Assembly: GCA_045588675.1 (NCBI GenBank)
Contig: JAZNER010000071.1
Coordinates: 4,122-68,121, forward strand
From: Eubacteriales bacterium
GTDB taxonomy: Bacteria > Bacillota > Clostridia > Oscillospirales > CAG-272
Direction: 5' to 3'
Length of the DNA: 64,000 nucleotides
Every line of letters begins with the position of its first letter. Position 1 is the first letter of the stretch. The notes beneath the pieces were generated by a model. It saw only the letters and a program-made list of their open reading frames with translations, was not told the origin of the DNA and did no database searches. Positions 48,850 to 64,000 of the stretch are shown here, in pieces. Made by a program: the position numbers and the translations under genes.

Positions 48850-48880
48850 AAAAGGGATGGTCATATGACCATCCCTTTTG
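48850..48880. terminator. Bidirectional terminator between fucI and the fibre locus
   Basis: A perfect palindrome GGGATGGTCATATGACCATCCC is flanked by AAAA and TTTT. Confidence 0.75.
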
Positions 48881-48946: not shown

Positions 48947-49693
48947 CTATCCCAATTCATTCACTTCCGTCGGTTCTGTGTCGGTTGAAACCTCTTCGCT
49001 TGAATCAATTTCAGGTGCTGTGGTTTCGATTTCAGTATCACTTTCAGTAGTCGTTTCTTCGGTGGCGGTTTCTTCAGTAGTTGCTTCTTCAGTAGTTGCT
49101 TCTTCAGTAGCTGTTTCGGTAGTTATTCCTTCGGTAGCTGTTTCTTCTGCAGTCGATTCTTCCGGAGCTGTTACCGGCGTCGATTCTTCCATATTCAAAT
49201 AGTATGTATCGTTCTTAAGTGTTCTTTCGGATTCGGCTTTACTTGAAACACCCCAACAAGTAATTATTTCTATTTCTTTATCTTCGCTGAACCTCAGTGT
49301 AAAGGTAATAACATTTTTCCCCGGCAAGGTAGATACCTGCTCTGTATAACACGAAATATCATCTACAACAAAAACGCAATATGCAGAATTTGCAGAACCG
49401 TCGGCTCTTATTGTAATCACATAGTCCTTATTTTTTTCAAAAGTATATTTCTCAATTATATTGGTATCTTCAGTTTCACCGCTTTTTACGGTAACTGTCA
49501 CATCGCAGTGTGCCGATTGAATATTATTTGCAGACGAAGATACATCCGCAAAAAACCACGCGAAGGTTGTCGAACAAAGAGCTATCATACAAAAGAGAAT
49601 GCCAAAAACAGAAATCGTAATACTTTGCTTAAAAGCTTTGTCTGTCAAATTTTCTTTGTCGGAGCCAAATATTATATTTTTAATTTCTTTCAT
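48947..49693 (-). CDS. Secreted protein with a SipW-cognate-type signal peptide and a Thr/Glu-rich repetitive tail
   Basis: The signal region is ITISVFGILFCMIALCSTTFAWFFADV. The C-terminal tail is ATEEATTEEATTEETATEETTTE. GGAGG lies before the ATG. Confidence 0.75.
   Translation of the reverse strand: MKEIKNIIFGSDKENLTDKAFKQSITISVFGILFCMIALCSTTFAWFFADVSSSANNIQSAHCDVTVTVKSGETEDTNIIEKYTFEKNKDYVITIRADGSANSAYCVFVVDDISCYTEQVSTLPGKNVITFTLRFSEDKEIEIITCWGVSSKAESERTLKNDTYYLNMEESTPVTAPEESTAEETATEGITTETATEEATTEEATTEETATEETTTESDTEIETTAPEIDSSEEVSTDTEPTEVNELG
49040..49155 (-). repeat. Imperfect in-frame tandem repeats of about 15 nt that encode the Thr/Glu-rich tail
   Basis: Units of ttcttcagtagttgc recur head to tail on the + strand. 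Confidence 0.7.
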
Positions 49694-49849
49694 ACGTTTA
49701 GCCTCCTTTCGTGAGGTGAAAAAATACTTTCAGCAATCAAAAGGTACAAACTTATTAACTGTTACTAACTGATTTATTTCTACTGAGAGCTTATGCCTTT
49801 TGATTGCCGCCTATCCCTCATGGGGAGGGATAGGACAGACTTTTATTCT

Positions 49850-51607
49850 TTAGTTGTTTGGATAAACAACGGTTACACCGTCATAGGTCTTCAGACCGGA
49901 AACACCCTGTCCGCCACCAAACAACTGATCAAATACGATGAGTACATTATGCGACTCGTCAGTATTGTGGTTACAAGCGGAGAGATCAATACCGTCCGTG
50001 CCGGTACCTGCTTCAACACGTGCGTACTTGTATTCGCCGGGACCGTTATAACTACCAGCCCCAAGATCGGCATCTTCACAATAATGATAGTTTACCCAAT
50101 CACCATAGATAACCTTTACGTTTTCGCAAGTAACATAGCCAGTGGGATCAGCAACTCCATTCACACCGTCAACATGACCGATCAGCATACCACTGTAACG
50201 GTAGAGCCAGTACTGATAATTCGCTGCAACGTCATTGATTGCGTCAAGCTGGCAAGCAACGGTAATGTCCTTGAACGTTACATTGTTACCGGCGTGAACC
50301 AAACCGACAACACCACCGAGGCGAACATCATAGGTGCCCCAAAGAGGACCGATAACGGTATCTTCATCAACTGCAATATTGGTGAAAGAACAGTTACCAT
50401 AGCACTCAGCTGCAACACCGCCGGCAGAGTTATTGTAAGCAATCAAAGTTGTATTGGAAATTATGATATCAGAGAATGTAGTATCAACAGCATTACCTAC
50501 AACACCTGCTGCTTCATTTCTTCCGCTGGAGATGTATGCATCGGCAACAGTCACATTTTTAATGGTAGCACCATTGGTATAAGCAAAGAGGCCATAATAT
50601 TCGCCCTCATACTGCCATGCGTTAAGGTCGCTCTGCTCGTACATATTAGAAATTGTGTGTCCCTGACCGTCAAAAACGCCATTAAATGATTGACCGTTTG
50701 CAGAATGACCAATCGGATTGAATGGAATGGAAGCAAGGTCTATATCACTATCCAGTTTAATTGTTTTGCCTGCAAAATTATTGCCGCCGTCTACAAGAGA
50801 AGCTAAGCCAGCAACGGCTTCCGCAGTGTTCAACGTAAACTCTGTATCTGTATCATTGTACCACGAGGTATCAGCGGTGCCGTCCCAAACATCAGCAGTT
50901 GCAAGTTCGGGATATGCAGCATCCTTATCATACTGGTTGCCGAAGCTATCGTTCTCATAAGTAAATTGAGTTGCAAGAACATTGATGCCGAAGGTGATTG
51001 TGGGAATATCGGTGCCGTTGTGGTTAGCCTCGTTGCCAACGCTTTCAGCCATATCGACCTTTACGATCAGATACTTGGAAGTACCGGGCAGCAGCATTTC
51101 GTCAGCTCCAAGAACATTTGCGTTTTTAAAGGAAGCTGTATTGGTGTACTGCAATGTGCTTTCGTCGCCGAAAGCCACTCCAAGCAGAACATCGCCCATT
51201 GCCCCAGTATCCATAATAATCGAATCAACGGTAAGAATGTCTGAGAGAACGATATTAGCACCGTCTTTAGTCTTACCGATGGTCTCGTTAACAATGTTCA
51301 TATTGGCATTGTATTTCAAAGCCAAAGTACCATTGTTCTTAATACGGAGAGCGACTACCTCTGTGTGACCGGGCTCCCAAAGTCCCTTCTGGAACAGATC
51401 GGTTGCACCGTCAAGTTCGTTCCAGTTTTCACCGTCAAGCGTATACTCAACAACAATGTCAAGATTGCCTGCGGTAATCACGTTGCTGCCGGAAGCAGCA
51501 CTGTCTGTAAACCACGCGAACGTCGTGCTAAGCAGCATGGAAAAGCAAAGGAGCAGTGCCATGACGCTTGCAAGGAGTGCGCGCTTTGTGGATTTTGTGT
51601 TAGTCAT
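49850..51607 (-). CDS. TasA/camelysin-like N-domain protein with a SipW-cognate signal peptide and a GLUG-type beta-helix C-domain (585 aa paralog)
   Basis: The signal is KRALLASVMALLLCFSMLLSTTFAWFTDS. The TasA-like block is GNLDIVVEY...WEPGHTEVVALRIKNNGTLALKY. The C-domain has WDGTADTSWY...FNGVFDGQGHTISNMY and AGGVA/LGGVVG repeats. Confidence 0.75.
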   Translation of the reverse strand: MTNTKSTKRALLASVMALLLCFSMLLSTTFAWFTDSAASGSNVITAGNLDIVVEYTLDGENWNELDGATDLFQKGLWEPGHTEVVALRIKNNGTLALKYNANMNIVNETIGKTKDGANIVLSDILTVDSIIMDTGAMGDVLLGVAFGDESTLQYTNTASFKNANVLGADEMLLPGTSKYLIVKVDMAESVGNEANHNGTDIPTITFGINVLATQFTYENDSFGNQYDKDAAYPELATADVWDGTADTSWYNDTDTEFTLNTAEAVAGLASLVDGGNNFAGKTIKLDSDIDLASIPFNPIGHSANGQSFNGVFDGQGHTISNMYEQSDLNAWQYEGEYYGLFAYTNGATIKNVTVADAYISSGRNEAAGVVGNAVDTTFSDIIISNTTLIAYNNSAGGVAAECYGNCSFTNIAVDEDTVIGPLWGTYDVRLGGVVGLVHAGNNVTFKDITVACQLDAINDVAANYQYWLYRYSGMLIGHVDGVNGVADPTGYVTCENVKVIYGDWVNYHYCEDADLGAGSYNGPGEYKYARVEAGTGTDGIDLSACNHNTDESHNVLIVFDQLFGGGQGVSGLKTYDGVTVVYPNN

Positions 51608-51639
51608 TTTGTTTAACCTCCTTTGAAGACAATCAGAGA

Positions 51640-53178
51640 TTAGCCCTTGCGGTAAACTTCAATGCCGTCAATATTGATGATAGCAACACGACCCGAGTTC
51701 ATCTTGCCGGTAGTACCATAGGAACCGTTATAGGTGGTGTTGTTAACATTGATCGTACCGCCAGAGCTGAACACCTGGAATGCCAATGCGTTTGCATCGG
51801 AACCCGCGTAGACCTCACAGTTATTGATAGTCAAAGTAGCACCGCCTGCGACTGCAACAGCGTGAGACTTTTCTGCCTTGATAATGCAATTTTCGATAGT
51901 CATATCACCCATAGCATATACAGCAGGCTGCATGTTCTTGGTGTTTTTCGCAGTAATGGTAGCATCCTTAACAGAAGAACCTTCGGGCAGAAGCAGACCG
52001 GTCGTTGCTTCAAAAGTACCACCGTTGATCTCTACGCTGAGATTGCTTCCATCATAATAAGAGCAATCCAATACATATCCGTTAGCTGCGGTGCTCGTAT
52101 AATTAACATCATTCAGAACAATCTTGATTTCACCGTCACCGTCAGGCTTAATCAAAGTAGAACCTGCATCGTCAGAAATGAAGCTACCGCCATTGATTTC
52201 GATAGTAGCATTCGCCCCTGCGGCAACATCGACCAATCCGTTCTTGCCCAGCTTAACTTCTTCGTCAGTTCCTTCGATTTTTACAGTAACATCGCTTCCA
52301 GAAGCTACGAAGAAAGCACTATCGAGGGCGGAGGCATCCATATCAAAACCGTTCAGATCAATCGTAACATTGTCGGCAACAGCAATAGTTTCCGTCAAGG
52401 AAATGTCAGCCTCAAACTTTACGCTCTTACCCTCTGCAAGAGCATCGGAAAGACCTGCTGCATCAACCACAGGATACTCCGCGTCTGCATCATACTGATT
52501 ACCGAAGCTATCATTTTCATAAGTAAACTGAGTAGCAAGAACATTGATACCGAAGTTGATGGTAGGAATGTCTGTACCATTGTGGTTAGCTTCGTTAGCA
52601 ACAGCTTCGTCCATATCAACCTTGATGATCAAATAGTGCTCTACACCGGGAGCAAGCTCAACATCACTGCGAAGAATGTTACCTGCTTTGAATGTAGCGG
52701 TATTTTCATAAGCCACGCTACTTTCACCGTTAAATGCAAGCATAAGTGCAATATCACCAACACCCATATCATCGTTAGCCTGCTGAACAAGAGTACTTAC
52801 GGTAAGAATGTCTGAGAGAACGATATCAGCACCATCCTTAGTCTTACCGATGGTCTCGCTGGCAATGTTCATATTGGCAGCATATTTCAGAGCCAAAGAA
52901 CCATTGTTGGTGATACGGAGAGCGACTACTTCTGTGTGACCGGGCTCCCAAAGTCCCTTCTGGAACAGATCGGTTGCACCGTCAAGCTCCTTCCAGATTT
53001 CGCCGTCAAGCGTGTACTCGACAACAATGTCAAGGTTGCCTGCAGTGATTACATTGCTACCTGAAACAGCGCTATCTGTAAACCACGCGAACGTCGTCCC
53101 AAGCAGCATGGTAAAGCAAAGGAGCATTGCCGTGATGCTTGATAGAAGTGCGCGTTTTGTTGAATTTTTGTTAGTCAT
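51640..53178 (-). CDS. TasA/camelysin-like N-domain protein with a SipW-cognate signal peptide and a different parallel beta-helix-like C-domain (512 aa paralog)
   Basis: The first roughly 235 aa are almost identical to the 585-aa paralog. The C-terminal half has repetitive beta-strand units (VTIDLNG, ATIEINGG, LSVEINGG, LTINNC). Confidence 0.75.
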   Translation of the reverse strand: MTNKNSTKRALLSSITAMLLCFTMLLGTTFAWFTDSAVSGSNVITAGNLDIVVEYTLDGEIWKELDGATDLFQKGLWEPGHTEVVALRITNNGSLALKYAANMNIASETIGKTKDGADIVLSDILTVSTLVQQANDDMGVGDIALMLAFNGESSVAYENTATFKAGNILRSDVELAPGVEHYLIIKVDMDEAVANEANHNGTDIPTINFGINVLATQFTYENDSFGNQYDADAEYPVVDAAGLSDALAEGKSVKFEADISLTETIAVADNVTIDLNGFDMDASALDSAFFVASGSDVTVKIEGTDEEVKLGKNGLVDVAAGANATIEINGGSFISDDAGSTLIKPDGDGEIKIVLNDVNYTSTAANGYVLDCSYYDGSNLSVEINGGTFEATTGLLLPEGSSVKDATITAKNTKNMQPAVYAMGDMTIENCIIKAEKSHAVAVAGGATLTINNCEVYAGSDANALAFQVFSSGGTINVNNTTYNGSYGTTGKMNSGRVAIINIDGIEVYRKG

Positions 53179-53300
53179 TTTTTATTACCTCCTTTTTGGC
53201 ATATTTCTTTAGACTAACTATGTAAAGCGGTCTTTCCGCACTACATCAAATCAAGTTTGATTTGTTATTTCTTCGGGTACATACCCGCTATTAACAGTGT

Positions 53301-55190
53301 TTATTTGTTGTTGTAAATAACTTTTACACCATCGTGTGTTGGAGATCCGTAAACACCTTGACCTCCTCCGTAAAGCTGGTCGAATGTACATTCAATAAAG
53401 TGATCCTCACCTGCGTTATGAACATGATTATCGTCGACAACTTCATTTCCGTTTGCATCAGTAGGATGTCCGTATCTAGGATTTGAATAAGCGCTGTTGC
53501 TGACACCGGCTTGAACTCTTACATAAGGCCAACTTGTTCCTGCAAACTCGCAGTAGGTGTAATTTGCCCATTCACCATAAGTAACGGTAACATTTTCGCA
53601 AGTCAGCTGAGGAGCATCTGCATATGTAGTGCCATCAACTACTACAGTCTTACCGGGATTGCCGATCAACATACCGCAACGGCGGTATGCATACCACTGA
53701 TACGAAGAGGTAACATCGTTGTACGCATCTATGCGGCAAGCAACATTACAATCTTTCATGTAAATCGTTGCACTTCCGCCTGCTCCGCCTATTATACCGC
53801 CAGTAGAGTTGTCAAAATCTCCCCACTGTGCTGCGATGGTGGTGGAAGCATCTACATCACAATTAATGTACTGATGGTTACCGCTCGCCCAACCAACTAT
53901 GCCTCCTGCATAGTACTGATAGTCTGCGCCTTTTGAGTTGCTTACTTTGATATTTTCAAATGTGCAATCTCCGTAAGCTGTGGCAGCAACGATACCAACT
54001 ATAGCAGATTCACCCGAAATGTCAGCACCATCCATATTCAAATTCTTAATGGTGGCATCCTCAACCATTCCAAACAGACCAAGGCCAAGATCTCCGTAGT
54101 AGTAACCGTTATTAAGCTCCCATGTGTTCTGGCTCAAATTCTTTATCGTATGGCCTTGACCGTCAAACGTACCGGTAAATGCCTTGTCTTGTCTATACGA
54201 GCCTATGGGATCAAAGCATATATTATTAAGATCTACGTCCTCATCCAGCTTAACAGTTTTTCCTTCAAATGTTACGGGCAGAGTTATCTCTGATGACGCG
54301 TCAGCGGGAATAGCCGCTGTGCCGTCAACGAGGGCTGCAAGTCCTGCCAAGGCCTCTGCACTATACAGAGTAAATTCGGTTGCCTCTGGATTTTCTAAAT
54401 ACCAAGAAATATCAGCAGTGCCGTTCCAAATGTCAGGAAGCTCGGGATATGTAGCATCCTCGTCATAATCACTACCGAAGCTATCGCTTTCATATGCAAG
54501 CTGTGTAGCAACCGCGGTCAGAGTGAAATCGATCTGGGGAATATCTGTTCCGTTGTGATTTGCCTCGTTGGTAACCGTAGTGGGCATAGAGATCACAACA
54601 AGAACGTAAGCAGAACTGTAAGCGCCGTTTGTGGCGTCGTTAGCGGAGAAAGCAACACCGTTCTTGATTACGGCGATTTCATCCTTCAAGGAAGCTACAC
54701 CAGAGTTAGCGGCGCTACCCCACGCAAAGCTATCAAGGCTCTCACGGGTGGTGTAGAAGTTGCTCTCCATTTCAGTGGAAGTGGTAGTCATATATTTAAC
54801 TTGCAGATAATCGGAAAGGCTGAACTTTTCGCCTGCCTTGTTTGTCCCCTGTTTTTCGCTTGCAACATTTACGGCAAGGTCATAGCGGAAAGCAAGAGAA
54901 CCGAGATTTTCAACCTTCAGCCATACAGCCTCGGTGTAGCCTGGCTCGTAAAGAGCATCTTTGCCGAAAAGAATTGTGCTTTCCGTTACTTCCGTCCATT
55001 CGGTGTTCTCTGCACCGTAGGGCTTATAAGACAGTTTCATATCCAGATTACCTGTCTTAATGATGTTGTTTCCGCTGGTTGCGGAATCTGTGAACCACGC
55101 GAACGTCGTCCCAAGCAGCATGGTAAAGCAAAGAAGCATCGCCATGACGCTTGAGAGTAGTGCGCGCTTTGTTTGTTTTGTTTTAGTCAT
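53301..55190 (-). CDS. TasA/camelysin-like N-domain protein with a SipW-cognate signal peptide and a GLUG-type beta-helix C-domain (629 aa paralog)
   Basis: The signal is KRALLSSVMAMLLCFTMLLGTTFAWFTDS. The N-domain is more divergent. The C-domain is homologous to the 585-aa paralog (WNGTADISWY...FTGTFDGQGHTIKNL). Confidence 0.75.
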   Translation of the reverse strand: MTKTKQTKRALLSSVMAMLLCFTMLLGTTFAWFTDSATSGNNIIKTGNLDMKLSYKPYGAENTEWTEVTESTILFGKDALYEPGYTEAVWLKVENLGSLAFRYDLAVNVASEKQGTNKAGEKFSLSDYLQVKYMTTTSTEMESNFYTTRESLDSFAWGSAANSGVASLKDEIAVIKNGVAFSANDATNGAYSSAYVLVVISMPTTVTNEANHNGTDIPQIDFTLTAVATQLAYESDSFGSDYDEDATYPELPDIWNGTADISWYLENPEATEFTLYSAEALAGLAALVDGTAAIPADASSEITLPVTFEGKTVKLDEDVDLNNICFDPIGSYRQDKAFTGTFDGQGHTIKNLSQNTWELNNGYYYGDLGLGLFGMVEDATIKNLNMDGADISGESAIVGIVAATAYGDCTFENIKVSNSKGADYQYYAGGIVGWASGNHQYINCDVDASTTIAAQWGDFDNSTGGIIGGAGGSATIYMKDCNVACRIDAYNDVTSSYQWYAYRRCGMLIGNPGKTVVVDGTTYADAPQLTCENVTVTYGEWANYTYCEFAGTSWPYVRVQAGVSNSAYSNPRYGHPTDANGNEVVDDNHVHNAGEDHFIECTFDQLYGGGQGVYGSPTHDGVKVIYNNK

Positions 55191-55265
55191 TTTTTGTTAC
55201 CTCCTTATTGGTGTGTTTCGCTAAACTAACTCTATATAAAGCGGTGTTGCCGCAATACGCTAAAA

Positions 55266-55997
55266 TTATGTTTGAGCCGTCGTATCGTCGGCACTGTTTT
55301 CGGTCGTTAGTGTGAAATTTGCTTCCCCGCCCTCTTTCTTGGCAAGCTGTGCTTTGAGCTCAAGCAGCTCAGCCATCATACGCTGACTTTCAGCGCGTTC
55401 TTCCTCGAGCTTTGCTCTTTCAGCCTTCATTTCTTCCATTTGTTCCTTTTTATATTTGCGGAACAGGCGAACACAATTAAGCCCCTGTGAAAGAATAAGA
55501 AGCAGAAAAGGAACGAGAATACAAAGAATATATCCGGGTGTTGTTTTAAGAAAAGCAAAAAACAATCCTACCTTTGGTATTCTTCCCTGATATTTGCCAA
55601 CGACATATTCATGTGTAACGATAGTTTCATCATCGGTATTTGTGGTCGTACCGTAGGTAATAAATCCCGGGTTGCCATAAACGTCGGTTGTAAGCTTTCT
55701 GATTTTGTGTGTTACCGTTTCTCCAAAGCTGTTCGGATCTTGTGACAAAAAGGTTATGATGTCGCCTTCCTTCAGCGTTGCAGGATCTACATTTTTGGAT
55801 ATTGCTATATCACCTGCATCAAAATCAGTTGCTGACATTGAGTCGGTTTGCACTATAAAAAATTTAAAACCAAATAAATTTCTATCCGTTTGATTGAAGG
55901 TGTTTACCGAGAAAATGGTGAAAATCATCATTCCTACTGCTATTGCGACTATGGTCCATACCAACACGGCTTTTGCGATCTGTAATGCTTTTTTCAT
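55266..55997 (-). CDS. sipW: SipW-type (archaeal/ER-like) signal peptidase I with a C-terminal coiled-coil extension
   Basis: It has an N-terminal TM segment, a catalytic Ser context VQTDSMSA, GDIITF and His context VTHKI, and a second TM segment. The pattern matches B. subtilis SipW. A charged helical tail follows. Confidence 0.85.
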   Translation of the reverse strand: MKKALQIAKAVLVWTIVAIAVGMMIFTIFSVNTFNQTDRNLFGFKFFIVQTDSMSATDFDAGDIAISKNVDPATLKEGDIITFLSQDPNSFGETVTHKIRKLTTDVYGNPGFITYGTTTNTDDETIVTHEYVVGKYQGRIPKVGLFFAFLKTTPGYILCILVPFLLLILSQGLNCVRLFRKYKKEQMEEMKAERAKLEEERAESQRMMAELLELKAQLAKKEGGEANFTLTTENSADDTTAQT

Positions 55998-56007
55998 TCA
56001 GTCCTCC

Positions 56008-56556
56008 TTAATCACCAAAATCCATCTGTGGATTGTTTTGCTTTTGGGTTGCATTAGCTGTGATGTTAAAGGACACTGTCTGCCCCTGCGCGCTGTTATC
56101 AGTGTCGGAAGAAAAATAGAATTCGATATAAAGCGTCTTTTCTTCTCCTGCGGCAAGCGAGCTTACTGCAACCTTATCGGCTCTCAGCTCATTCATCGTG
56201 CCTTTGCAAAGAACAGTGCCGTCTTTTTCTTTAATAGTAACAGTAATGAAATCCTTGAGGGGACCCTCCACCTCGGTAAAATAAACGCGATACCACACAT
56301 CAAAGGATCCAAGATTAGCAATAGGAAATTCGCTTCGATATGTTCCGCCCGGTTCGTAAAATACATCTGTAACGTCAACTACCGGGTTGCCTTCGTTTAT
56401 CTTAAGCTCCACGCCCATACTCATGGCAAAACGATTGTTTCGCACACTGACAATTGAGCTTACCAAAGCCAAGCTGGTAATCGTCAGCCCACAAACAAGG
56501 AGAACAACGGTCGCGATCATAATATTAAGTTTTTTCTTCAGACTTTGTTCGTTCAT
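56008..56556 (-). CDS. Small TasA-like single-module protein with an N-terminal TM/signal segment
   Basis: 182 aa. After the hydrophobic segment, EPGGTYRSEFPIANLGSFDVWYRVYF and GEEKTLYIEFYFSS resemble the TasA/camelysin beta-sandwich pattern. AAGGAG lies before the ATG. Confidence 0.6.
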   Translation of the reverse strand: MNEQSLKKKLNIMIATVVLLVCGLTITSLALVSSIVSVRNNRFAMSMGVELKINEGNPVVDVTDVFYEPGGTYRSEFPIANLGSFDVWYRVYFTEVEGPLKDFITVTIKEKDGTVLCKGTMNELRADKVAVSSLAAGEEKTLYIEFYFSSDTDNSAQGQTVSFNITANATQKQNNPQMDFGD

Positions 56557-56571
56557 TCACCTATGTCTCCT

Positions 56572-58263
56572 TTACTGTAATTGCCACGAAAAATCGGCGG
56601 TAAGGCTTTCGCCTGCATATTCGTTACCGACCTCTGCGCCATTGGTGTAAACGGTTATTCGGTAATAGATCGGGGTGACGGTCTTGGCGTTTGCCGTCAC
56701 GCTCACGCCAACGACAGTACAATCCTTTATCAATCCGTCATACAAAATTTTGTCTTGAGCCTGGGGGATAAGCTGTTCAATTTTTACTCTTAATACCTTT
56801 GAAAGCTTTTGTGATGTGTCAACGGCGATATCAAAACAAACATTCTGTTTGCTATCGTGAGTGACCGAAACACAATAATACTGCTCTGCTCTGTCACCGG
56901 GCAACATATTCTTTACATCAAACGGGATATTAGCATAGCCATCCTTCGCCGTCAGCTCAATTGCCGTTGCTGTTACCGGCGGTTGGGGAGGAGAGGGCGG
57001 ACTTGGCGGACTTGGGGGATCTGGAGTATCCGGTGGCGTATAAGGCTTATCATATGCAACAAAGCTGTTGCTTGGCACTTTAAGCTGCTCGCTTGTTTCT
57101 TCCAGCGTCCAAGACAAATCGCACACAAGCTTGGTTTCACAATATTCTTCTGTCAATCCGTCTGCGGTAACAGTTACCTTGTAATACACCGTCGTTTTGT
57201 TGTTATCATTTTTGGGAAGCATATGCTCAACGTTGAGATCTTTGAGCAGTCCTTCGTAAAGCGTGTCGTTTCCGTCTTCGCCGACAAGCTCTACCTTGAC
57301 TTTCAGCACCTCGCCGAGCTTGCTGTCAAGCACGACCGCATTGTTGATAGCCACCTTGATGTCCTCTCCGTGTGTCACTTCAAAAGCGAAATATTTTGTC
57401 TGGCTGTCACCGTTTTTTATGTCCTTCATATCAAAAGCGGTGTTGTCGCCTTCGTTTACTTGAGAAAATTTCAAATCGGGATTTATTATCGGAGGAGAGG
57501 GCGGCGTCGGCGGGTCGGGAGGGGTTGCTTTGGAAACCGTAGTAAACTCGTGGTTTGCGACTGTGATATTATCCTGTCCCTCTATCCACCAAGACATATC
57601 CGCTATCAGCTTTTGTCCGTAATATTGATCATCAAGAGAAGCATCGAGATAAATCGTGATACGGAACAGATACTCTATTGTTGTATTTATGTCTGTGTTA
57701 AGTGCAATTTCAATCGCAGGCATATCTGCCAGCAAGCCGCGATACAGCAGCTTGTCGCCCTCTGCGCCGACAAGCTCAGCTTTAATATTCAATATCTCAG
57801 CAAGCTTTTGGAACTCCTCGTTTTCGCGTATAGTCATATCATATTTCAAAATGAAATCCGAGTTATATGTAGCAATCACACGATAGAAAATGCTCGCGCT
57901 ACCACCTTCGTCCATTCCTTCGATATAAAACGGGAGATTTTCCTCGTCGCTGCCTTTGCTAAATTCCAAATCAGCTTTTGAAATAACGACAGGTGGAGGC
58001 GGATCGATGACATTTCCCGGGATCTCCACAGAGCCGTGCGACACTTCTCCGCCCTGACAGCCACGTAGCGTTAAGCTTATTGAGGTAAGCGCTAAAATCA
58101 ATATTCCAATTATAACAGCAACTCTCTTCAGGTTGTTGATCTGTTTAACTGCTGCCAGCGGATCGTTCTTCCCTATTATTTTTTCAAATTTAGCAATAGA
58201 AAAAAATTTACCAATGCCTCGCCCCACAGAAGCTACGATATTTTGAAATTTGTTTCTTTTCAT
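56572..58263 (-). CDS. Membrane-anchored protein with three tandem TasA-like modules joined by Pro-rich linkers
   Basis: 563 aa with one TM segment (VAVIIGILILALTSISLTL). The three roughly 140-aa modules end in DMSWWIEGQ, CDLSWTLEE and ADFSWQLQ. The linkers are TPPDPPTPPSPP and TPPDTPDPPSPPSPPSPPQPP. Confidence 0.7.
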   Translation of the reverse strand: MKRNKFQNIVASVGRGIGKFFSIAKFEKIIGKNDPLAAVKQINNLKRVAVIIGILILALTSISLTLRGCQGGEVSHGSVEIPGNVIDPPPPVVISKADLEFSKGSDEENLPFYIEGMDEGGSASIFYRVIATYNSDFILKYDMTIRENEEFQKLAEILNIKAELVGAEGDKLLYRGLLADMPAIEIALNTDINTTIEYLFRITIYLDASLDDQYYGQKLIADMSWWIEGQDNITVANHEFTTVSKATPPDPPTPPSPPIINPDLKFSQVNEGDNTAFDMKDIKNGDSQTKYFAFEVTHGEDIKVAINNAVVLDSKLGEVLKVKVELVGEDGNDTLYEGLLKDLNVEHMLPKNDNNKTTVYYKVTVTADGLTEEYCETKLVCDLSWTLEETSEQLKVPSNSFVAYDKPYTPPDTPDPPSPPSPPSPPQPPVTATAIELTAKDGYANIPFDVKNMLPGDRAEQYYCVSVTHDSKQNVCFDIAVDTSQKLSKVLRVKIEQLIPQAQDKILYDGLIKDCTVVGVSVTANAKTVTPIYYRITVYTNGAEVGNEYAGESLTADFSWQLQ

Positions 58264-58303
58264 CGCTGTCCTCCTTTCTTAAAATCACATAGGAGTTATA
58301 ATC

Positions 58304-58594
58304 TTATTTCTTTTTCCTCGGTTGTAATAACATATATCCACAATCTGGGCAAATGGAATCTCCAGCTGTAAGGGGGGCGTTGCAAATTATGCAACGCGGC
58401 GCAGTCACAGCGTTCTCACATTTTACGCAAACAAGTGCCCCTTCGGGGATAATTTCTCCACAAGAAATGCAGGTGTTTACATTCTCAGCATAATAACTCG
58501 TTTTGCTTCTGATTTCCGTGATTTTTTCTGTTTTTTTTCTGTCTTTTCTTTTCAATTCTATCTCCGCGTACAATTTGTGTTGGTTTTTCCACAT
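58304..58594 (-). CDS. Small double zinc-ribbon protein (start uncertain)
   Basis: It has four cysteine pairs in CISCGE...CVKCEN...CIICNA...CPDCG. The only ATG gives a 110-nt overlap with the tetR 3' end and has no clear RBS. Confidence 0.45.
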   Translation of the reverse strand: MWKNQHKLYAEIELKRKDRKKTEKITEIRSKTSYYAENVNTCISCGEIIPEGALVCVKCENAVTAPRCIICNAPLTAGDSICPDCGYMLLQPRKKK

Positions 58595-59189
58595 CTTTAA
58601 AATATGTCGCCATCATACAGTATAGAACATTGAAGATATGCGGTGTATTGATATCGCTATCCTCGAGCTCTCCGTTATACACGCGGATGCCGAAATCTAA
58701 TAAGGTGGTAAAAACGCTGTGTAATATAGAAACGACGTCCGCTTCTTCCTTGAAGAATGGAGCCATTTCAGCTACTATTTCCCCAAAAAGCTTTTTATGA
58801 GCTTCAAGAGAGTGTCCCTTGAAATAAATTGAATAGTAATATCTTACATAGCAGCGGCACCGTTCCTCATTTCCCAGAATAAATCTCCATGCCATCAAAA
58901 AGAATTTGTACAGTCTATCTTTTGAATCAGATGTAAATCCGCCGAGCGCTTGAACTCCGTGCCGAAAAGCATAAAACAATTCGTTATCCAAGCAAACGAA
59001 AGCTGCTTCGTATAAGTTTTCTTTGTTTCCAAATAAACGGTAAATATAAGCCTCGTTCATTTTAAAGTCAGGCAACGACCCTCTGCAATGAGTCAACTCC
59101 TTTGTTGTCGCCTTTTCAAAGCCACCTTCGGCAATAAGCCTTATGGCGTTACTGATAAGTAATTCTTTAATCTCTGCTTCGCGTTTCAT
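58485..59189 (-). CDS. TetR/AcrR-family transcriptional regulator
   Basis: The N-terminal HTH is AIRLIAEGGFEKATTKELT with an all-helical remainder. GGAGG lies 10 nt before the ATG at 59189; the ORF is open to 59255. Confidence 0.82.
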   Translation of the reverse strand: MKREAEIKELLISNAIRLIAEGGFEKATTKELTHCRGSLPDFKMNEAYIYRLFGNKENLYEAAFVCLDNELFYAFRHGVQALGGFTSDSKDRLYKFFLMAWRFILGNEERCRCYVRYYYSIYFKGHSLEAHKKLFGEIVAEMAPFFKEEADVVSILHSVFTTLLDFGIRVYNGELEDSDINTPHIFNVLYCMMATYFKDVEKPTQIVRGDRIEKKRQKKNRKNHGNQKQNELLC

Positions 59190-59340
59190 TTCGGTCATAC
59201 CTCCATTTAATTTATACACCGAATTATTAACTGATTTCGCTAGGGCTTGTAGCAAACACTACACCGCGTCCTTAAAAAAATCCCTATCCTTGTAGGCACA
59301 TATTTAAGTATGCAGTTTTTGTTTGCTGAGAGTAAAAATG

Positions 59341-59393
59341 ACATAACGAGAGTTATGTCATTTGTGACAAAACATAACGAGAGTTATGTGATA
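59341..59393. repeat. Left inverted repeat (IRL), 53 bp
   Basis: It is the exact reverse complement of 59641-59693. It contains two copies of the 18-bp palindrome ACATAAC-GAGA-GTTATGT. Confidence 0.95.
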
Positions 59394-59402
59394 AAATATA
59401 AT

Positions 59403-59432
59403 AAAAAAAAGAGGGTTTGTTGCTTATCCCTC
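59403..59432 (-). terminator. Possible minus-strand terminator inside the switch
   Basis: On the minus strand, GAGGG plus a 12-nt loop plus CCCTC is followed by T8. The stem is weak at 5 bp. Confidence 0.35.
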
Positions 59433-59578
59433 GTTCAAAAAACGAAAAAAAGAGCGCAACGATAAAACTTTCGCCAAATTTTTTCAGAAAATTTGCACGA
59501 AAGGCGTTTTTGTTGCGCATTTTTTATGTCAAATTGAATAAACTTTACAGGGTGTCTTAATTTTTTTTGCGGAAGCTC

Positions 59579-59607
59579 TTGACTTTGCTTAAATTATGTG
59601 CTATAAT
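59579..59607 (+). promoter_or_regulatory. Near-consensus sigma-A promoter inside the putative invertible segment
   Basis: TTGACT (59579-59584), a 17-bp spacer, then an extended -10 TGcTATAAT with the -10 at 59602-59607. It currently points at the 3' end of the recombinase gene. Confidence 0.65.
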
Positions 59608-59640
59608 TCGCTATGTATCTGAAAAATGTTGGATACTTAA

Positions 59641-59693
59641 TATCACATAACTCTCGTTATGTTTTGTCACAAATGACATAACTCTCGTTATGT
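59641..59693. repeat. Right inverted repeat (IRR), 53 bp
   Basis: It is the exact reverse complement of 59341-59393. Confidence 0.95.
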
Positions 59694-59729
59694 TGCTTTT
59701 GTTCTCGATGTATTTACATCGGGACTTTT

Positions 59730-60572
59730 TTAAATAATGAGCTTCATATGCTCCATCTTACGCCTGTGCTCCGCTCCCGTCGTGACAATATAAATACGGG
59801 TAGTGTTGATGCTTGCGTGTCCCAAAATATCCGCAAGCTTCGCAATATCCTTTTCAATTCCATAAAAGGTACGGGCGAACAGATGACGCAGATTGTGCGG
59901 AAACACCTTGCTCGGTGCGACCTTTGCCTGCTCACACAGCGACTTCATTTCCTTCCATATATTATTGCGGCTAATAGGCTTACCTCGTCTGGTAATAAAT
60001 ATTGCACCCGAAGCGATCTTCTGCTCCTCGACATATCGGAGCAGTTTTTTCTTTAGCCCGGCAACTATGAAAATACGGCGGTTTTTTCCCTTACAATTAA
60101 CTACTGCTTCTCCCCGTTGCAACGATTCTACTGTAATATACTGCAGCTCGCTCACTCGAATCCCTGTTCCACAAATCGTTTGAATTATTAAATTCAACCG
60201 CTCATTGTGTTTTGCATTTGCCGCATCAAGCAATCGCAGATATTCCCCTCGGGTTAGTTCTTTTTCCTCTGAACAATAGGCTTCTCTTTGCACCTTGAAT
60301 TGCTTGACACAAAGATCATGCCAGCCGCAGAAGCGCAGAAATGAATTCAGTGCCGCGATCATAGAGTTTGCACTTGCAACGGCGTATGAGGAGCCGAGCT
60401 TGTTCTTATATTCTAACACGGTTTGCTTTGAGATCTCTGCTGTTCCGGCAAACTCGGCAAAACATCTCAAGTCCCGCATATATTTTTCAATAGTTGCCAC
60501 ACTTTTTTCTTCATCTGTCAAAAACAATTGAAATTCTTTAAATTTCTTTATTCCAACAACTCTTTTTTTCAT
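59730..60572 (-). CDS. Tyrosine-type site-specific recombinase (phage integrase family)
   Basis: Catalytic signature residues lie in GIRVSEL (Arg), HNLRH (His-x-x-Arg) and GHASINTTRIY (His...Tyr). AAGGAGAG lies before the ATG at 60572. Confidence 0.88.
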   Translation of the reverse strand: MKKRVVGIKKFKEFQLFLTDEEKSVATIEKYMRDLRCFAEFAGTAEISKQTVLEYKNKLGSSYAVASANSMIAALNSFLRFCGWHDLCVKQFKVQREAYCSEEKELTRGEYLRLLDAANAKHNERLNLIIQTICGTGIRVSELQYITVESLQRGEAVVNCKGKNRRIFIVAGLKKKLLRYVEEQKIASGAIFITRRGKPISRNNIWKEMKSLCEQAKVAPSKVFPHNLRHLFARTFYGIEKDIAKLADILGHASINTTRIYIVTTGAEHRRKMEHMKLII

Positions 60573-60778
60573 AAAGTACTCTCCTTTATTGGGTATTAAT
60601 GCTATTATTTCACCAAACAACTTCGAATAATACCGAAATCCTTGATAAAGTTACATAAATATCCTATCTGAACGCCAGAAATAAAGAAACAAAAAAAACA
60701 GAACGCTTCCGAGCGGTCAAGTGCTTTCAATTCAAAAATAATGAAGATATACCTGTGAAAGTCTGAAAATTAAGGAAT

Positions 60779-60820
60779 AAAAAAGCGGAGAAATCTTTTG
60801 ATTTCTCCGCTTTTTCTTTT
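60779..60820. terminator. Bidirectional terminator upstream of the recombinase gene
   Basis: An 11-bp stem GCGGAGAAATC/GATTTCTCCGC is flanked by an A-run and a T-run. Confidence 0.75.
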
Positions 60821-60911
60821 CTAAAAAGATCCGTGTTTAAAATCACGAGGATACACTTCCCCCCCTGGCGACGATAGAAGCTGCCCTTGTTTGCTATCTA
60901 CGGGTGCAGTG

Positions 60912-61505
60912 CTACACTAACAAACTAATATTTGCAAAAAGAATAAGCAACGGCAATGCAACAAAACACATAACAATTAACAAAACAATTCTTCGTTTGC
61001 TGCCTTTTGATACTTTTGCGTTGATATCCGGATAATATTTTCTCGATTTAGAAAGAAGAAACAGCGGCGCATGCATAAGCACTATTTTCCTTTTTCTCGT
61101 ATATATGATGGCATGACACCTATACTTCCTATACTTAGGGTTAAATAATTTTCGTCTTCTCGGTATTTTAATTTCATATTCCATTTTAACGATTTCGTTC
61201 CACTTAATAATGCCGTCTTTGTAGTGTATCCCATCATCATTTAAGACACAAATAATTTTTCCAAAAATGCGGCGATTTAGAACAGATAAGAAAACAAAAG
61301 GAAATGAACAGACGAGGCATCCTTCAAAACTAATCAAAAGACCTGAAAGCCATTCTGACAGTTGAAATTCACCGAATGTGAATTGGAAAACCAACAAACT
61401 GTAAGAAACCCAAACCGCACATGAAAGCAATACCAAGATAGGAACTGTAAAATATTGCCAACGAATTTTTGTGCCTTCTATTTTACTGAGTCGATTTGTC
61501 TTCAT
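60912..61505 (-). CDS. Hypothetical membrane protein (197 aa)
   Basis: It has two N-terminal TM segments, a basic soluble region and a C-terminal TM segment. AGAGGGAAAA lies before the ATG. I recognise no family. Confidence 0.5.
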   Translation of the reverse strand: MKTNRLSKIEGTKIRWQYFTVPILVLLSCAVWVSYSLLVFQFTFGEFQLSEWLSGLLISFEGCLVCSFPFVFLSVLNRRIFGKIICVLNDDGIHYKDGIIKWNEIVKMEYEIKIPRRRKLFNPKYRKYRCHAIIYTRKRKIVLMHAPLFLLSKSRKYYPDINAKVSKGSKRRIVLLIVMCFVALPLLILFANISLLV

Positions 61506-61674
61506 TTTTCCCTCTTGTCCGTTTTTTAAGTGATACGGAAGTCAATGTTCACTTCTCTTCATTAATTATATCATAAATTAGTTAATAATGCAATACCTTA
61601 AGTGTCTGAACGATTGAAAATTTTACAAAGCAGAAAAAAGTATATTTTTCTCTGCAATTGTTGCAAATTAGCTC

Positions 61675-61703
61675 TTGACAAAACCGTCGTTTTATGAGAT
61701 AAT
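61675..61703 (+). promoter_or_regulatory. Sigma-A-type promoter for the ZTP riboswitch and pflB
   Basis: TTGACA (61675-61680), a 17-bp spacer, then TGaGATAAT with the -10 at 61698-61703. Confidence 0.55.
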
Positions 61704-61737
61704 ATAGAGGAAGAAGATATATTTTTTAACTGAATAG

Positions 61738-61866
61738 CATTTGCAGGACTGACGGATAACGCGGAGCACCGCGGGGAACTGCAAATGAGAGCAACTCATT
61801 TTTGAGAACTGCTTGTGCCGACCGTCTGGGTAAAACTGTTTTCTCAAAACAGCTTTGCCTTTTTTT
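61738..61866 (+). ncRNA. ZTP (pfl motif) riboswitch with a terminator expression platform
   Basis: P1 is CAUUUGCAG/CUGCAAAUG. The conserved core is GACUGACGG...CGCGG-agca-CCGCGGGGA. A linker precedes the 3' subdomain CCGACCGUCUGGG, where CCGUC can pair with GACGG as a pseudoknot. An overlapping 14-bp terminator plus T7 lies at 61829-61866. Confidence 0.8.
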
Positions 61867-61902
61867 GTTGTAAAAATGATACATATTAGGAGGACTTAAC
61901 CG

Positions 61903-64000
61903 TGAAACACACCAACTGGACAGGCTTCAACAGCGGCGTATGGCAGGACGAGATAAATGTCCGCGACTTTATACAAACTAACTACAATGCCTATGAGGGA
62001 AATGCTGATTTTTTAGCTGCCGCAACCCCCCGCACTCAAGCATTGATGAAAAAAATACAGGGGCTTTTCGCCCTCGAAAGACAGTTCGGCGGCGTTCTGG
62101 ATATTGATACTGCTACTGTTTCTTCCCTCGCCAGCTTCTCGCCCGGATATGTGGACAAGGAGAACGAAATAATCGTAGGTATGCAGACCAACCGCCCACT
62201 CAAGCGCAGCGTCAACCCATTCGGAGGTATTCGTATGGTTAAACAGGCCTGTGAGGCATACGGCTACAAGCTAAGCCCGAAGGTTGAGGAGGAGTTCCGC
62301 TTCCGCACCACCCATAACGACGGAGTGTTCCGTGCCTACACCGACGAGATGCGCGCCGCCAGAAAGTGTCACATCATTACAGGCCTTCCTGATGCCTACG
62401 GCCGCGGCCGTATTATTGGCGACTACCGACGCGTTGCGCTCTATGGCGTAGATCGTCTTATAGAGGAAAAGATCAAGGATAAACAGAAGCTGGCAGAAAA
62501 GTGCTTCAACACCGACGAGATCCGCTTGGACGAGGAGCTCTATCAGCAGATAGCCTTCCTCGGTTATCTCAAGGAAATGGCTCAGATGTACGGCTTTGAC
62601 ATCAGCCAGCCCGCAGCAAACGCTCGCGAGGCTATTCAGTGGACATACTTTGGATATTTGGCCGCTATCAAGGAGCAGAACGGCGCCGCTATGTCGCTGG
62701 GACGCGTCAGCACCTTCTTTGACATTTACATTGAGCGCGATATGGCTAACGGCACTCTCACCGAGGAAGGCGCCCAGGAGCTTATGGACGACTTTGTTAT
62801 GAAGCTTCGTATCGCTCGTCATCTCCGCACCCCAGAGTACAACGAGCTCTTTGGCGGCGATCCTATGTGGATAACCGAGGTTGTTGGCGGTATGGGTGAA
62901 GACGGCAGAACACTTGTCACCAAGAGCAGCTTCCGTATGCTCCACACGCTCTACACTCTGGGTTCATCTCCCGAGCCCAATCTGACGGTGCTGTGGTCAA
63001 CAAAGCTCCCCGAAAACTTCAAAAAGTACTGCGCCAAGGTGTCAGCAGATACCGACTCTATCCAGTATGAAAGCGACGACCTTATGCGCCCGATATACGG
63101 CGACGACTATGCAATAGCTTGCTGCGTTTCGGCTATGAAGGTGGGTAAGCAGATGCAATTCTTCGGCGCAAGATGCAATCTGGCAAAGCTTCTCCTCCTG
63201 GCTATCAACGGCGGATACGATACCTCAAGCACTATGCACATCGGTCCACAGATGCCTGTGATGGACGGAGATACCCTGGACTATGACGAGGTCATGGCTC
63301 GTATGGAGATATATATGGCATGGCTGAGCCGTCTCTATGTTAACACCATGAATATCATTCACTATATGCACGATAAGTATGCCTATGAAAAGATTCAAAT
63401 GGCTCTTCACGATACAGATGTAGATAGATTTATGGCCTTCGGTATAGCAGGACTTTCTGTAGTGGCCGATTCCCTCTCTGCTATCAAGTACGCCAAGGTT
63501 GCTCCCGTCAAGAATGAAAACGGATTCATTGTTGACTTCAACACCACGGGCGAATTTCCCAAGTTCGGTAACGACGACGACCGAGTGGATCTCATCGCAA
63601 AGGATATGACTCACCGTATGATCGAGGAGCTCCGCAAGACCCCCACTTACCGCAATGCTATCCATACTCTGTCAGTGCTGACTATTACTTCAAATGTTAT
63701 GTACGGCAAGAACACAGGCGCAACCCCCGACGGCCGTCGCAACGCCGAGCCCTTCGCTCCCGGCGCTAACCCTATGCATAACCGCGAGGAAAACGGTGCT
63801 CTGGCTTCGCTTAACTCAGTAGCAAAGATAAGCTATGACGACTGCCGCGACGGCATTTCCAACACCTTCTCTATCACTCCCGAAGCACTGGGAAAAACCT
63901 ACGACGAGAGAATCGAAAATCTCGTTCACATTCTGGACGGATACTTTGCAAAGGGCGCGCACCACATCAATGTAAATGTACTGAACCGTGAAACGCTTAT
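61903..64000 (+). CDS. pflB: Formate C-acetyltransferase (pyruvate formate-lyase), N-terminal about 699 codons; 3' end outside the window
   Basis: It is not in the ORF track because it has no stop in the window. It has a GTG start 8 nt after GGAGG. Hand translation gives [28 protein letters not shown]...[26 protein letters not shown], which is canonical PflB. Confidence 0.93.

Follow-up and report, generated by a model that had tools for sequence, protein, structure and literature searches.

Gene content of the locus

The stretch of DNA analysed here (the window) comprises 64,000 nucleotides from an Eubacteriales bacterium (Clostridia; Oscillospirales; CAG-272; assembly GCA_045588675.1, contig JAZNER010000071.1, positions 4,122 to 68,121 of the forward strand). 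At 48947-59189, nine co-directional open reading frames (ORFs) on its minus strand encode, in the order of reading, a TetR-family regulator, a zinc-ribbon protein, a membrane protein of 563 amino acids (aa), a TasA-like subunit of 182 aa, a SipW-type signal peptidase, three large proteins of 629, 512 and 585 aa that are called headed proteins below, and a protein of 248 aa. A promoter segment bounded by inverted repeats and a recombinase gene lie upstream. An earlier description made from the letters alone (the sequence-only reading) had presented these nine genes as an expanded SipW/TasA-like secretion and fibre locus. All nine are present with the coordinates and lengths that it gave, and its core is right as regards the SipW-type peptidase, the cognate substrates, the TasA-like N-domains and the beta-helix heads. 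The recombinase gene and the inverted repeats 5' of the TetR gene fall just outside the interval that it covered and were no part of it. The locus is classified here as a phase-variable, head-bearing version of the SipW/TasA fibre system, belonging to a large uncharacterised family of gut Clostridia.

Each headed protein consists of a SipW-type signal peptide, a TasA-like N-domain and a large C-terminal head. In the 629-aa protein (53301..55190, minus strand, as for all genes of the operon), the N-domain extends over about residues 1-250 and is followed by a beta-helix head similar to the N-terminal domain of IgA1 protease. The 512-aa protein (51640..53178) joins a like N-domain to a right-handed parallel beta-helix, and the 585-aa protein (49850..51607) is a paralogue of the 629-aa protein with 43% identity over the full length. 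The motif TTFAWF stands at residue 28 in all three and at residue 42 in the 248-aa protein. The model of the SipW-cognate signal peptide, TIGR04088 (cutoff 19 bits), recognises the 585-aa (20.0 bits), 512-aa (23.1 bits) and 629-aa (19.9 bits) proteins, while the 248-aa protein remains under the reporting threshold despite its TTFAWF. The assignment of four proteins to this signal peptide class in the sequence-only reading is borne out by the model for three of them, and for the fourth by the motif and by alignment over this region. Pfam Peptidase_M73 (PF12389, cutoff 22.5 bits) matches the 182-aa (32.4 bits), 512-aa (27.5 bits) and 629-aa (24.3 bits) proteins and gives no match for the 248-aa and 563-aa proteins. 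The 585-aa protein falls just under the cutoff (21.4 bits), and its N-domain and that of the 512-aa protein share 73% identity. When the AlphaFold model of the 629-aa protein (built on 37 homologues; predicted local distance difference test, pLDDT, 73.5) was compared with the PDB by Foldseek, the best match was the TasA fibre 8aur (E = 9.2e-4, probability 1.00, 227 columns). It was followed by IgA1 protease 7uvl, which matches the head, by the archaeal TasA-like bundling pilus 7ueg and by donor-strand pilins, with CfaB in fourth place. The TasA/camelysin-like N-domain that had been proposed for the three headed proteins is thereby borne out, for the 585-aa protein by way of its identity to the 512-aa protein.

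Conservation in the N-domain is concentrated at its beginning. The family alignment has 22 invariant positions in the first 250 residues, and eight of them (A31, W32, F33, T34, D35, N42, G47 and L49) fall in residues 31-49, where the headed proteins share the N-terminal strand WFTDS-TSG-N-I--GNLD. In the monomer model of the 629-aa protein this region is unpaired and of low confidence (pLDDT 33-50), and it is the only part, besides the signal peptide, that the headed proteins have in common with the 248-aa protein. SipW cleaves TasA at TWA|AFND. By analogy, cleavage of the headed proteins is predicted at TTFA|WFTD, leaving Phe at P2'. In a study of TasA, the site that SipW cleaves is described as having Phe at P2' (PMC10269814). 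The conservation of the strand, its unpaired state and its presence in the 248-aa protein would fit donor-strand exchange as it is known for TasA (PMC9674648).

The signal peptidase (243 aa, 55266..55997) is of the archaeal or endoplasmic reticulum (ER) type. It scores 62.4 bits on the archaeal-type signal peptidase I model TIGR02228 (cutoff 51.85) and only 17 bits on the bacterial-type model TIGR02227, with Ser53 (in DSMS) and His97 (in THKI) unchanged across 11 homologues, in agreement with the Ser/His dyad expected of a SipW-type enzyme in the sequence-only reading. On the equivalog model of Bacillus SipW, NF046067, it reaches 70.8 bits against a level of 190, and therefore it is a SipW-like enzyme rather than an orthologue of Bacillus SipW. 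Following a second transmembrane helix, its C-terminal 65 residues or so (55266-55460) form a charged, cytoplasmic coiled-coil tail, RLFRKYKKEQMEEMKAER...LELKAQLAKK, which is almost invariant among relatives and is absent from the shorter SipW paralogue of a more distant locus (L002).

The bare TasA-like subunit (182 aa, 56008..56556) was announced in the sequence-only reading as a small TasA-like protein, as its Peptidase_M73 score confirms. Its similarity to the N-domains of the headed proteins is also evident by hhalign (probability 96.4%, E = 1.3e-9). For comparison, homologues of the 563-aa protein led to 13 related loci in sheep-colon and faecal metagenome-assembled genomes (MAGs) labelled Clostridia, Eubacteriales, Monoglobaceae or Acutalibacteraceae bacterium. 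In these relatives the bare subunit is 62-80% identical and the 563-aa protein 56-73% identical. The common gene order is recombinase, switch, TetR, zinc ribbon (not always present), stalk, bare subunit, sipW, one to four headed genes and the small protein. Single genes of this set are missing from some relatives: one locus (L003) is without TetR and several are without the zinc ribbon, and short contigs show part of the order only.

The 563-aa protein (56572..58263) has a cytoplasmic N-terminus, one transmembrane segment (about residues 44-69) and three modules of about 140 aa separated by proline-rich linkers. Its AlphaFold model (pLDDT 82) shows the modules as immunoglobulin (Ig)-like beta-sandwiches, and Foldseek relates it to generic tandem Ig-like adhesin and matrix proteins, i.e. 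the CupB6 tip adhesin, AgI/II, RbmA, CfaB and integrin legs. TasA is absent from the top 50 matches. Pfam gives nothing at E up to 10 for these three modules or for the 248-aa protein, and comparison of the modules with the N-domain profile (hhalign, 90 module sequences) yields a probability of only 29% (P = 6e-4), with collinear motifs. The transmembrane anchor and the three modules of the sequence-only reading are thus found again, while the TasA-like character that it gave them is not borne out and must be called unproven, because the folds are generic, Pfam is silent and the profile probability is low. Judging from the model, the product is a membrane-anchored Ig-like protein, and it is a candidate for a stalk or anchor. 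Its family has 71 members, some of which contain four or five modules. A lipoprotein signal was considered for a conserved L-R-G-C after the transmembrane helix and was rejected, as Arg at position -2 does not fit a lipobox.

The 248-aa protein (48947..49693), whose gene is also the last of the operon in relatives, matches the headed proteins over 55 residues only, which cover the signal peptide, the TTFAWF site and the first strand (hhalign 97%, E = 7e-11). This is followed by an unrelated Cys-containing domain of about 100 aa and by an acidic tail rich in Thr and Glu. Since only the signal peptide and the first strand are shared, it is not a TasA-domain protein; its inclusion among SipW-cognate proteins of TasA/CalY type stands for the N-terminal motif and strand and fails for the remainder, which has no M73 match. 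It is a donor-strand-only protein and a candidate nucleator or cap similar to TapA, whose layout and nucleating role through strand donation have been described (PMC10151520). No TapA chain of the PDB is matched, at E up to 10, by a profile made from five orthologues, and the likeness is accordingly one of architecture and not of family membership.

The heads are of two kinds, as the sequence-only reading had held in fusing large C-terminal domains to three of the four N-termini. In the 629-aa and 585-aa proteins they match the N-terminal region of peptidase M26 (Peptidase_M26_N, PF05342, E = 1.6e-4, 21.4 bits vs 27.7) and Glug (PF07581, E = 0.13, 13.2 bits vs 20.5), both under the gathering scores. 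The motif FxGxFDGQGHTIxN is real and nearly invariant in the family. The description of these two heads as GLUG-like is supported in part only, by the matches just given and by fold similarity to 7uvl (Foldseek E = 0.015 for the 629-aa head). The 629-aa head also resembles a "putative IgA1 protease" of a viral contig in BFVD (E = 1.2e-5, root-mean-square deviation 4.4 Å over 318 columns). Like these heads, the N-terminal domain of Streptococcus pneumoniae IgA1 protease (7uvl) has a beta-helix fold and a G-x-F-D-G-x-G-H-x-I motif region; unlike the protease, the heads are without an M26 catalytic domain. With this domain lacking and both Pfam matches too low for the gathering scores, the heads count as a non-catalytic beta-helix module related to that of the protease, and not as an IgA1 protease. 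The third head, that of the 512-aa protein, is indeed unrelated and parallel beta-helical: it is a beta-helix of pectate-lyase type, with a Beta_helix (PF13229) score of 24 bits just under the cutoff of 25.9. Tailspike and pectate-lyase-like matches turn up in the fold searches. In the C-terminal part of the 629-aa protein (53301-53500), there is a His-rich motif, D-x-N-H-V-H-N-x-G-E-D-H, of which H589, H591 and H597 are invariant or nearly so, and there are several invariant Cys, in a low-confidence part of the model; this may be a metal site.

In relatives, the same N-domain carries other heads, including Beta_helix (58.6 bits), NosD-like and BspA-type leucine-rich repeat (LRR; 145 bits) modules, which are typical of binding proteins. 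The N-domains of the 585-aa and 512-aa proteins are 73% identical as noted, their heads are unrelated, and the motif DSFG-x-x-YD-x-DA-x-YP is conserved at the junction between N-domain and head, a pattern consistent with swapping of heads at this junction. The product of the 512-aa gene (51640-53178) and its counterpart in a locus from a sheep-colon MAG (L004, 15346-16881; L005, 15364-16899) share 98% identity, whereas the other genes of the two loci share only 64-84%. This looks like a recent exchange of the head cassette between species, as far as the sequences indicate.

The headed proteins belong to a large family. More than 2355 homologues of the 629-aa protein were found, of which the few that bear a name are called "hypothetical protein" and come from MAGs of Clostridia. 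A search with the N-domain of 1.84 billion cluster representatives gave 5948 at E up to 1e-3, of which 1179 remain at E up to 1e-30, the counts being clusters at 50% identity. Of the best 150 relatives of the N-domain, 142 have it at the N-terminus of a protein of 350 aa or more (up to 1197 aa), so the headed architecture is the rule in this subfamily. The members come almost all from uncultured Clostridia of gut and rumen, and they are annotated as hypothetical.

A promoter segment that inverts in natural populations

Upstream of the operon, two inverted-repeat arms of 66 nt each, 92% complementary and 247 nt apart, were found by repeat search. The operon-proximal arm (59328..59393) contains core sites at 59341-59358 and 59372-59389, and the recombinase-proximal arm (59641..59706) contains core sites at 59645-59662 and 59676-59693. 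The 18-nt core, ACATAAC-GAGA-GTTATGT, thus occurs in four copies in the window where 0.01 would be expected by chance, and with its inverted 7-nt half-sites and asymmetric GAGA/TCTC centre it has the form of a core site of tyrosine recombinases. Across the loci, each side has one to three copies, 31 nt apart. The segment between the inner core sites (59390..59644, 255 bp) aligns with the corresponding segment of L004 only when it is flipped (score 79.5 vs 10).

The segment contains a promoter of the sigma-70 type with an extended -10 element (TTGACT-17-TGcTATAAT, 59579..59607, plus strand), which has 11 of 12 consensus matches in addition to the TG and is the best match of the scanned region. 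It also contains a long hairpin (59454..59518; -30.3 kcal/mol, z = -2.8) with T-runs on either side, which in the direction of the operon is followed by UCUUUUUUUCGUUUUUU. This hairpin is conserved in L003 and L004 and is a candidate bidirectional insulator or terminator. Because the promoter points away from the operon, the locus in the window is predicted to be OFF.

The neighbouring gene (59730..60572, minus strand) encodes an Xer-type tyrosine recombinase of 280 aa, a candidate invertase, with Phage_integrase (94 bits) and SAM-like N-terminal domains according to Pfam. The NCBIfam models of XerA, XerC and XerD score 114-141 bits, under their equivalog cutoffs, and models of invertases of the FimB/E type only 30-34 bits. 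Its catalytic residues R139, H226-x-x-R229, H252 and Y261 are invariant in 12 orthologues. Wherever the contig of a related switch-bearing locus extends far enough, the gene adjoins the switch, and from this adjacency the recombinase would be the enzyme that performs the inversion. A small terminator-like hairpin (59703-59724, plus strand) separates the switch from the 3' end of the recombinase gene and could keep OFF-state transcripts from running antisense into this gene. A bidirectional terminator with a 16-bp stem is found 5' of the recombinase gene (60780-60815).

In 12 of the 13 related loci, identical 18-nt cores flank a segment of 222-255 nt, though the proteins are only 56-86% identical, and the promoter stands at a fixed position of the segment in all 12 (TTGATT-17-TGgTATAAT in most). 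It faces the operon in seven of them (L004, L005, L010, L011, L012, L014 and L015; ON-like) and points away from it in five (L003, L006, L007, L009 and L013) as in the window (OFF-like). Pairs of close relatives show the inversion itself. The recombinase genes of L010 and L013 are 98.5% identical, and their segments reach 98% identity only after one of them is flipped, against 56% without flipping. One and the same recombinase protein is encoded on ten metagenome contigs from different samples: the segment is OFF in five and ON in three, and the other two contigs break off within the repeat. Within this set the flanks of L021 (OFF) and L028 (ON) are 100% and 98.8% identical, and the segment is 98% identical only when flipped. 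Inversion of the segment takes place in natural populations. To judge from the sequence, the recombinase and the invertible promoter probably decide whether the locus is expressed, the orientation of the segment presumably setting transcription of the operon.

Many public contigs with the recombinase gene (e.g. L019, L024 and L026) end 70-90 nt past the gene, inside the repeat, where an assembly is expected to break if a sample contains both orientations of the switch. The number of core copies per side, which would reflect use of the outer sites, was tried as a reporter of orientation and rejected, as L010, which is ON, shares its 2+1 pattern with several OFF loci. A pattern scan of metagenomes for paired core sites returned two short contigs only, and in one of them (L016, 74-362) the switch lies beside an unrelated ORF of 590 aa on the other strand. 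In L017 (3578-4296) the recombinase gene and the switch directly precede a headed TasA-like gene, with no TetR or stalk gene. The more distant SipW/TasA-like locus L002 has an integrase gene beside TetR and no long inverted repeat, so the switch is specific to the clade with the 563-aa stalk gene.

Proposed fibre assembly, rival readings and known systems

We consider it fairly probable that this is a phase-variable operon for SipW-dependent surface fibres of the TasA type with modular binding heads. The Xer-type recombinase would recombine the inverted 18-nt cores and thereby flip the segment of about 255 bp with its strong promoter and its hairpin insulator. In the ON orientation, the promoter would read through all nine genes, from TetR to that of the small protein, as far as the terminator at 48850-48879. 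The precursors would be exported by Sec and cut at TTFA|WF by the ER-type peptidase, as homology suggests, and the N-terminal strand thus exposed would insert into the beta-sandwich of the adjacent subunit in the manner of TasA fibres. We infer that the products are homo- or heteropolymers of the 182-aa and headed subunits, from which the beta-helix heads would project. The 248-aa protein would nucleate or cap the fibres like TapA, because it has the donor strand and is without the TasA-like acceptor domain, and the 563-aa type II membrane protein is the candidate stalk or anchor. The most likely role would be adhesion or aggregation in the gut, with ON/OFF switching and exchange of heads varying what the cell displays.

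Several observations weigh against this interpretation. The match of the 629-aa model to 8aur is modest (E = 9e-4, TM 0.40 on the target, 19% identity), and neither TasA nor any other significant chain of the PDB came up in sequence and profile searches that started from the 629-aa protein, from its family alignment or from the 182-aa protein; among the PDB searches, TasA was reached by fold comparison only. The bare subunit has no match to TIGR04088 and its signal region is without the FAWF motif, which makes its processing uncertain, and the role of the 563-aa protein as a fibre stalk or anchor is one that we infer for a candidate. Inversion has been seen in relatives only: the sole further informative contig, which is apparently of the species of the window (L018, recombinase 99% identical), is also OFF. 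One related locus (L008) has neither recombinase nor switch, and in L001 a headed gene stands alone with no sipW within 10 kb.

It is possible, if rather unlikely, that the headed proteins do not polymerise, so that the fibre, if there is any, would be made of the 182-aa subunit alone, and a headed protein would be a single tip adhesin or a monomeric surface protein whose TasA-like domain serves only to dock it to fibre, stalk or envelope, in the manner of FimH on type 1 pili or of the role proposed for archaeal AbpB. The bare subunit and the stalk form a conserved core of the relatives (62-80% and 56-73% identity), whereas the headed genes vary in number from one to four and in the type of head, as tip adhesins do, and heads of 270-390 aa on every subunit might hinder packing. 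AbpB, a larger paralogue in which a TasA-like domain is joined to extra distal beta domains, has likewise been proposed as initiator and adhesin (PMC9245690). The headed proteins nevertheless keep both the donor strand and the TasA-like sandwich in full, and nothing in their sequence bars both donating and accepting; the headed form is moreover the rule in the subfamily, and some headed genes (L001 and L017) are without a nearby bare paralogue.

The heads might instead be polysaccharide lyases, hydrolases or proteases, like many proteins with a parallel beta-helix and like the M26 family, secreted for nutrient acquisition by a locus beside fucose utilisation genes, with the camelysin-like domain as a carrier or cell-association module. 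The Beta_helix, NosD and M26 N-terminal-region matches, the tailspike and pectate-lyase-like fold matches, the conserved His-rich motif of the 629-aa head and the adjoining fucose genes all speak for such enzymes. We regard them as improbable, given that no catalytic-domain family scores above threshold, that the M26 match concerns the non-catalytic N-terminal region only, and that the heads of relatives include BspA-type LRRs, which are binding modules. The fucose neighbourhood seems incidental because the loci of relatives sit in unrelated genomic contexts, and "camelysin" is regarded as probably misassigned as a peptidase (10.1101/2024.11.04.621531). A further alternative concerns the switch, whose repeats and recombinase could be ends or remnants of a mobile element (an integrase with its attachment sites), the operon being driven by another promoter. 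TnpV, helix-turn-helix (HTH) and relaxase genes beside the recombinase of some relatives, the differing genomic contexts and the low G+C content of 0.34-0.40 around 58.5-62 kb would agree with this. It is very hard to reconcile with both orientations of the segment occurring between near-identical flanks (100% and 98.8%), with 18-nt cores perfectly conserved amid diverging DNA, with a consensus promoter at a fixed position in 12 relatives and the window, and with a segment that always lies between the recombinase gene and the first gene of the operon. These are defining properties of an invertible promoter, and we give the mobile-element explanation very little credence.

The proposed TasA-type fibre operon is best compared with tapA-sipW-tasA of Bacillus subtilis (8aur; PMC9674648, PMC10151520), which has a dedicated ER-type signal peptidase beside its substrates as well. 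The cleavage sites, TWA|AF in TasA and TTFA|WF in the window, both have an aromatic residue at P2'. TasA and the N-domain of the headed proteins are both beta-sandwiches whose conserved N-terminal strand is left free in monomers, and TapA and the 248-aa protein both have a donor-type N-terminus, a small Cys-containing beta domain and a disordered tail. Sequence similarity between the two operons is marginal and seen only through Pfam M73 and fold comparison. The window has five substrates against two in Bacillus, three of them with C-terminal heads of 270-390 aa, and in addition the membrane-anchored protein with three Ig-like modules, and control is by a DNA inversion switch and TetR in the place of SinR. 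The sipW-bsaA-bsaB-bsaC operon of Clostridium perfringens (PMC7395162; 10.1101/2024.11.04.621531) is likewise a SipW operon of a clostridial species and encodes more than one paralogue of the TasA type. For operons with several paralogues, heteropolymers joined through donor-strand exchange have been proposed, and an N-E-K isopeptide triad has been described in BsaA. BsaC is a large protein with a vWA domain of the binding type that is not described as fused to a TasA-like domain, whereas the heads of the window are fused directly. The bsa operon is regulated by temperature, with no invertible promoter described, while the window has one.

Archaeal AbpA/AbpB (7ueg; PMC9245690) and the chaperone-usher and type V pili also use TasA-like or Ig-like subunits and donor-strand complementation, which for the window is proposed. 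The archaeal abp operon is without the dedicated signal peptidase that the window has, and nothing in the window indicates a chaperone or usher. Unlike AbpA/AbpB and pili with tip adhesins, the window has its heads at the C-terminus of subunits that keep their own donor strand. Invertible promoters served by tyrosine recombinases are known from fimS of Escherichia coli with FimB/FimE, and from cwpV and flgB of Clostridioides difficile with RecV (PMC2784873, PMC7446863). These switches share with the element of the window a segment of about 250 bp, inverted repeats, a position upstream of surface-structure genes, a tyrosine recombinase with the full catalytic set, and the presence of both orientations in natural populations. 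The recombinase of the window is Xer-like and lies beside a single dedicated switch, whereas RecV serves many sites; its core sites are duplicated and its cargo is a SipW/TasA-type locus, unlike the fimS and RecV switches. A limited search of the literature found no report that joins fibres of the TasA family with DNA inversion.

Fibres of the TasA type are known mainly as biofilm scaffolds of bare subunits in Bacillus and C. perfringens, and here the module carries diverse binding heads. If the headed proteins polymerise like TasA, they would form adhesive surface organelles of a major class that has so far gone unrecognised in the gut microbiota. Tentatively, since we would place it somewhat below an even chance, the locus may represent an undescribed and widespread pilus of gut Clostridia that is assembled by donor-strand exchange of SipW-processed TasA-type modules without sortase or chaperone-usher, with exchangeable C-terminal heads (beta-helix, LRR and others) on all or on some subunits, a multi-Ig stalk rooting it in the membrane, a donor-strand-only nucleator, switching of the Xer type and exchange of heads across species. 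Such a pilus, if true, would be the Firmicute counterpart of the phase-variable fimbriae of Enterobacteria and Bacteroidales. A TasA-type locus with a demonstrable inversion switch makes phase variation testable in non-pathogenic gut Clostridia, with defined 18-nt sites and a dedicated recombinase. ON/OFF switching and the apparent exchange of cassettes point to strong diversifying selection, e.g. by the host, immunity or phage. For engineering, a presumably self-assembling fibre module that tolerates C-terminal fusions of 300-750 aa would be a natural display scaffold.

Regulatory genes and flanks of the operon

The first gene 3' of the switch encodes the TetR-family regulator (234 aa, 58485..59189; Pfam TetR_N 26 bits), with GGAGG 10 nt before its ATG, and the second a double zinc-ribbon protein (58304..58555; Pfam DZR 33.6 bits); both had been named in the sequence-only reading. 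Alignment with four relatives places the start of the latter at a conserved GGAG-N6-TTG at 58555 and not at the ATG of the ORF, which is open from 58594, so that the protein has 83 aa. The two genes overlap by 71 nt, within 58485-58594. The gaps of 10-156 nt reported earlier therefore apply to the other seven junctions of the operon (10, 15, 32, 40, 75, 122 and 156 nt). TetR of the window is without the stop codon of its relatives and reads on for about 30 codons, through an A-rich tract with a run of eight A, into the zinc-ribbon gene. A frameshift at this A8 run was considered and rejected, since the alignment shows that the stop codon of the relatives is simply absent in the window. Orthologues of TetR are 73-86% identical in most related loci, absent in L003 and only 37-46% identical in L008 and L014. 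A ribosome-binding site of the AAGGAGG type precedes the ATG by 6-10 nt in eight of the nine ORFs. Look-up of the exact sequences of TetR and SipW found no identical record, an Rfam scan of the locus found no known RNA element such as a c-di-GMP riboswitch, and the proteins of the locus have no C-terminal LPxTG signal, as had been noticed before.

At its 3' end, the operon shares with the convergent L-fucose isomerase gene, which a gene for a sugar-binding protein precedes, a bidirectional intrinsic terminator (48850..48879) with a GC-rich stem of 13 bp and A/T runs on either side (intergenic fold z = -5.3). The sequence-only reading had placed the locus between fucose genes and pflB, bounded on both sides by bidirectional terminators. 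The neighbours are as it said, the right one being a gene for a PFL-like glycyl-radical enzyme; the terminator is found on the 3' side, whereas the 5' side is formed by the invertible promoter element and the recombinase gene (59328-60572). Its proposal of an accessory island is supported in part, as the genomic context of the cassette differs between relatives, some of which have TnpV, HTH and relaxase genes next to it. The G+C content falls to 0.34-0.40 at about 58.5-62 kb, including the switch and the recombinase gene, against 0.43-0.53 in the flanks. Inside this stretch (58500-62000) lies a gene for a multi-pass membrane protein of 197 aa without a family match (60912-61505, minus strand). 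Directly 5' of the gene for the PFL-like glycyl-radical enzyme, which runs from about 61890 past the end of the window, there is a ZMP/ZTP riboswitch (pfl motif, RF01750; 61735-61838, plus strand) that scores 55.8 bits against a gathering score of 39.

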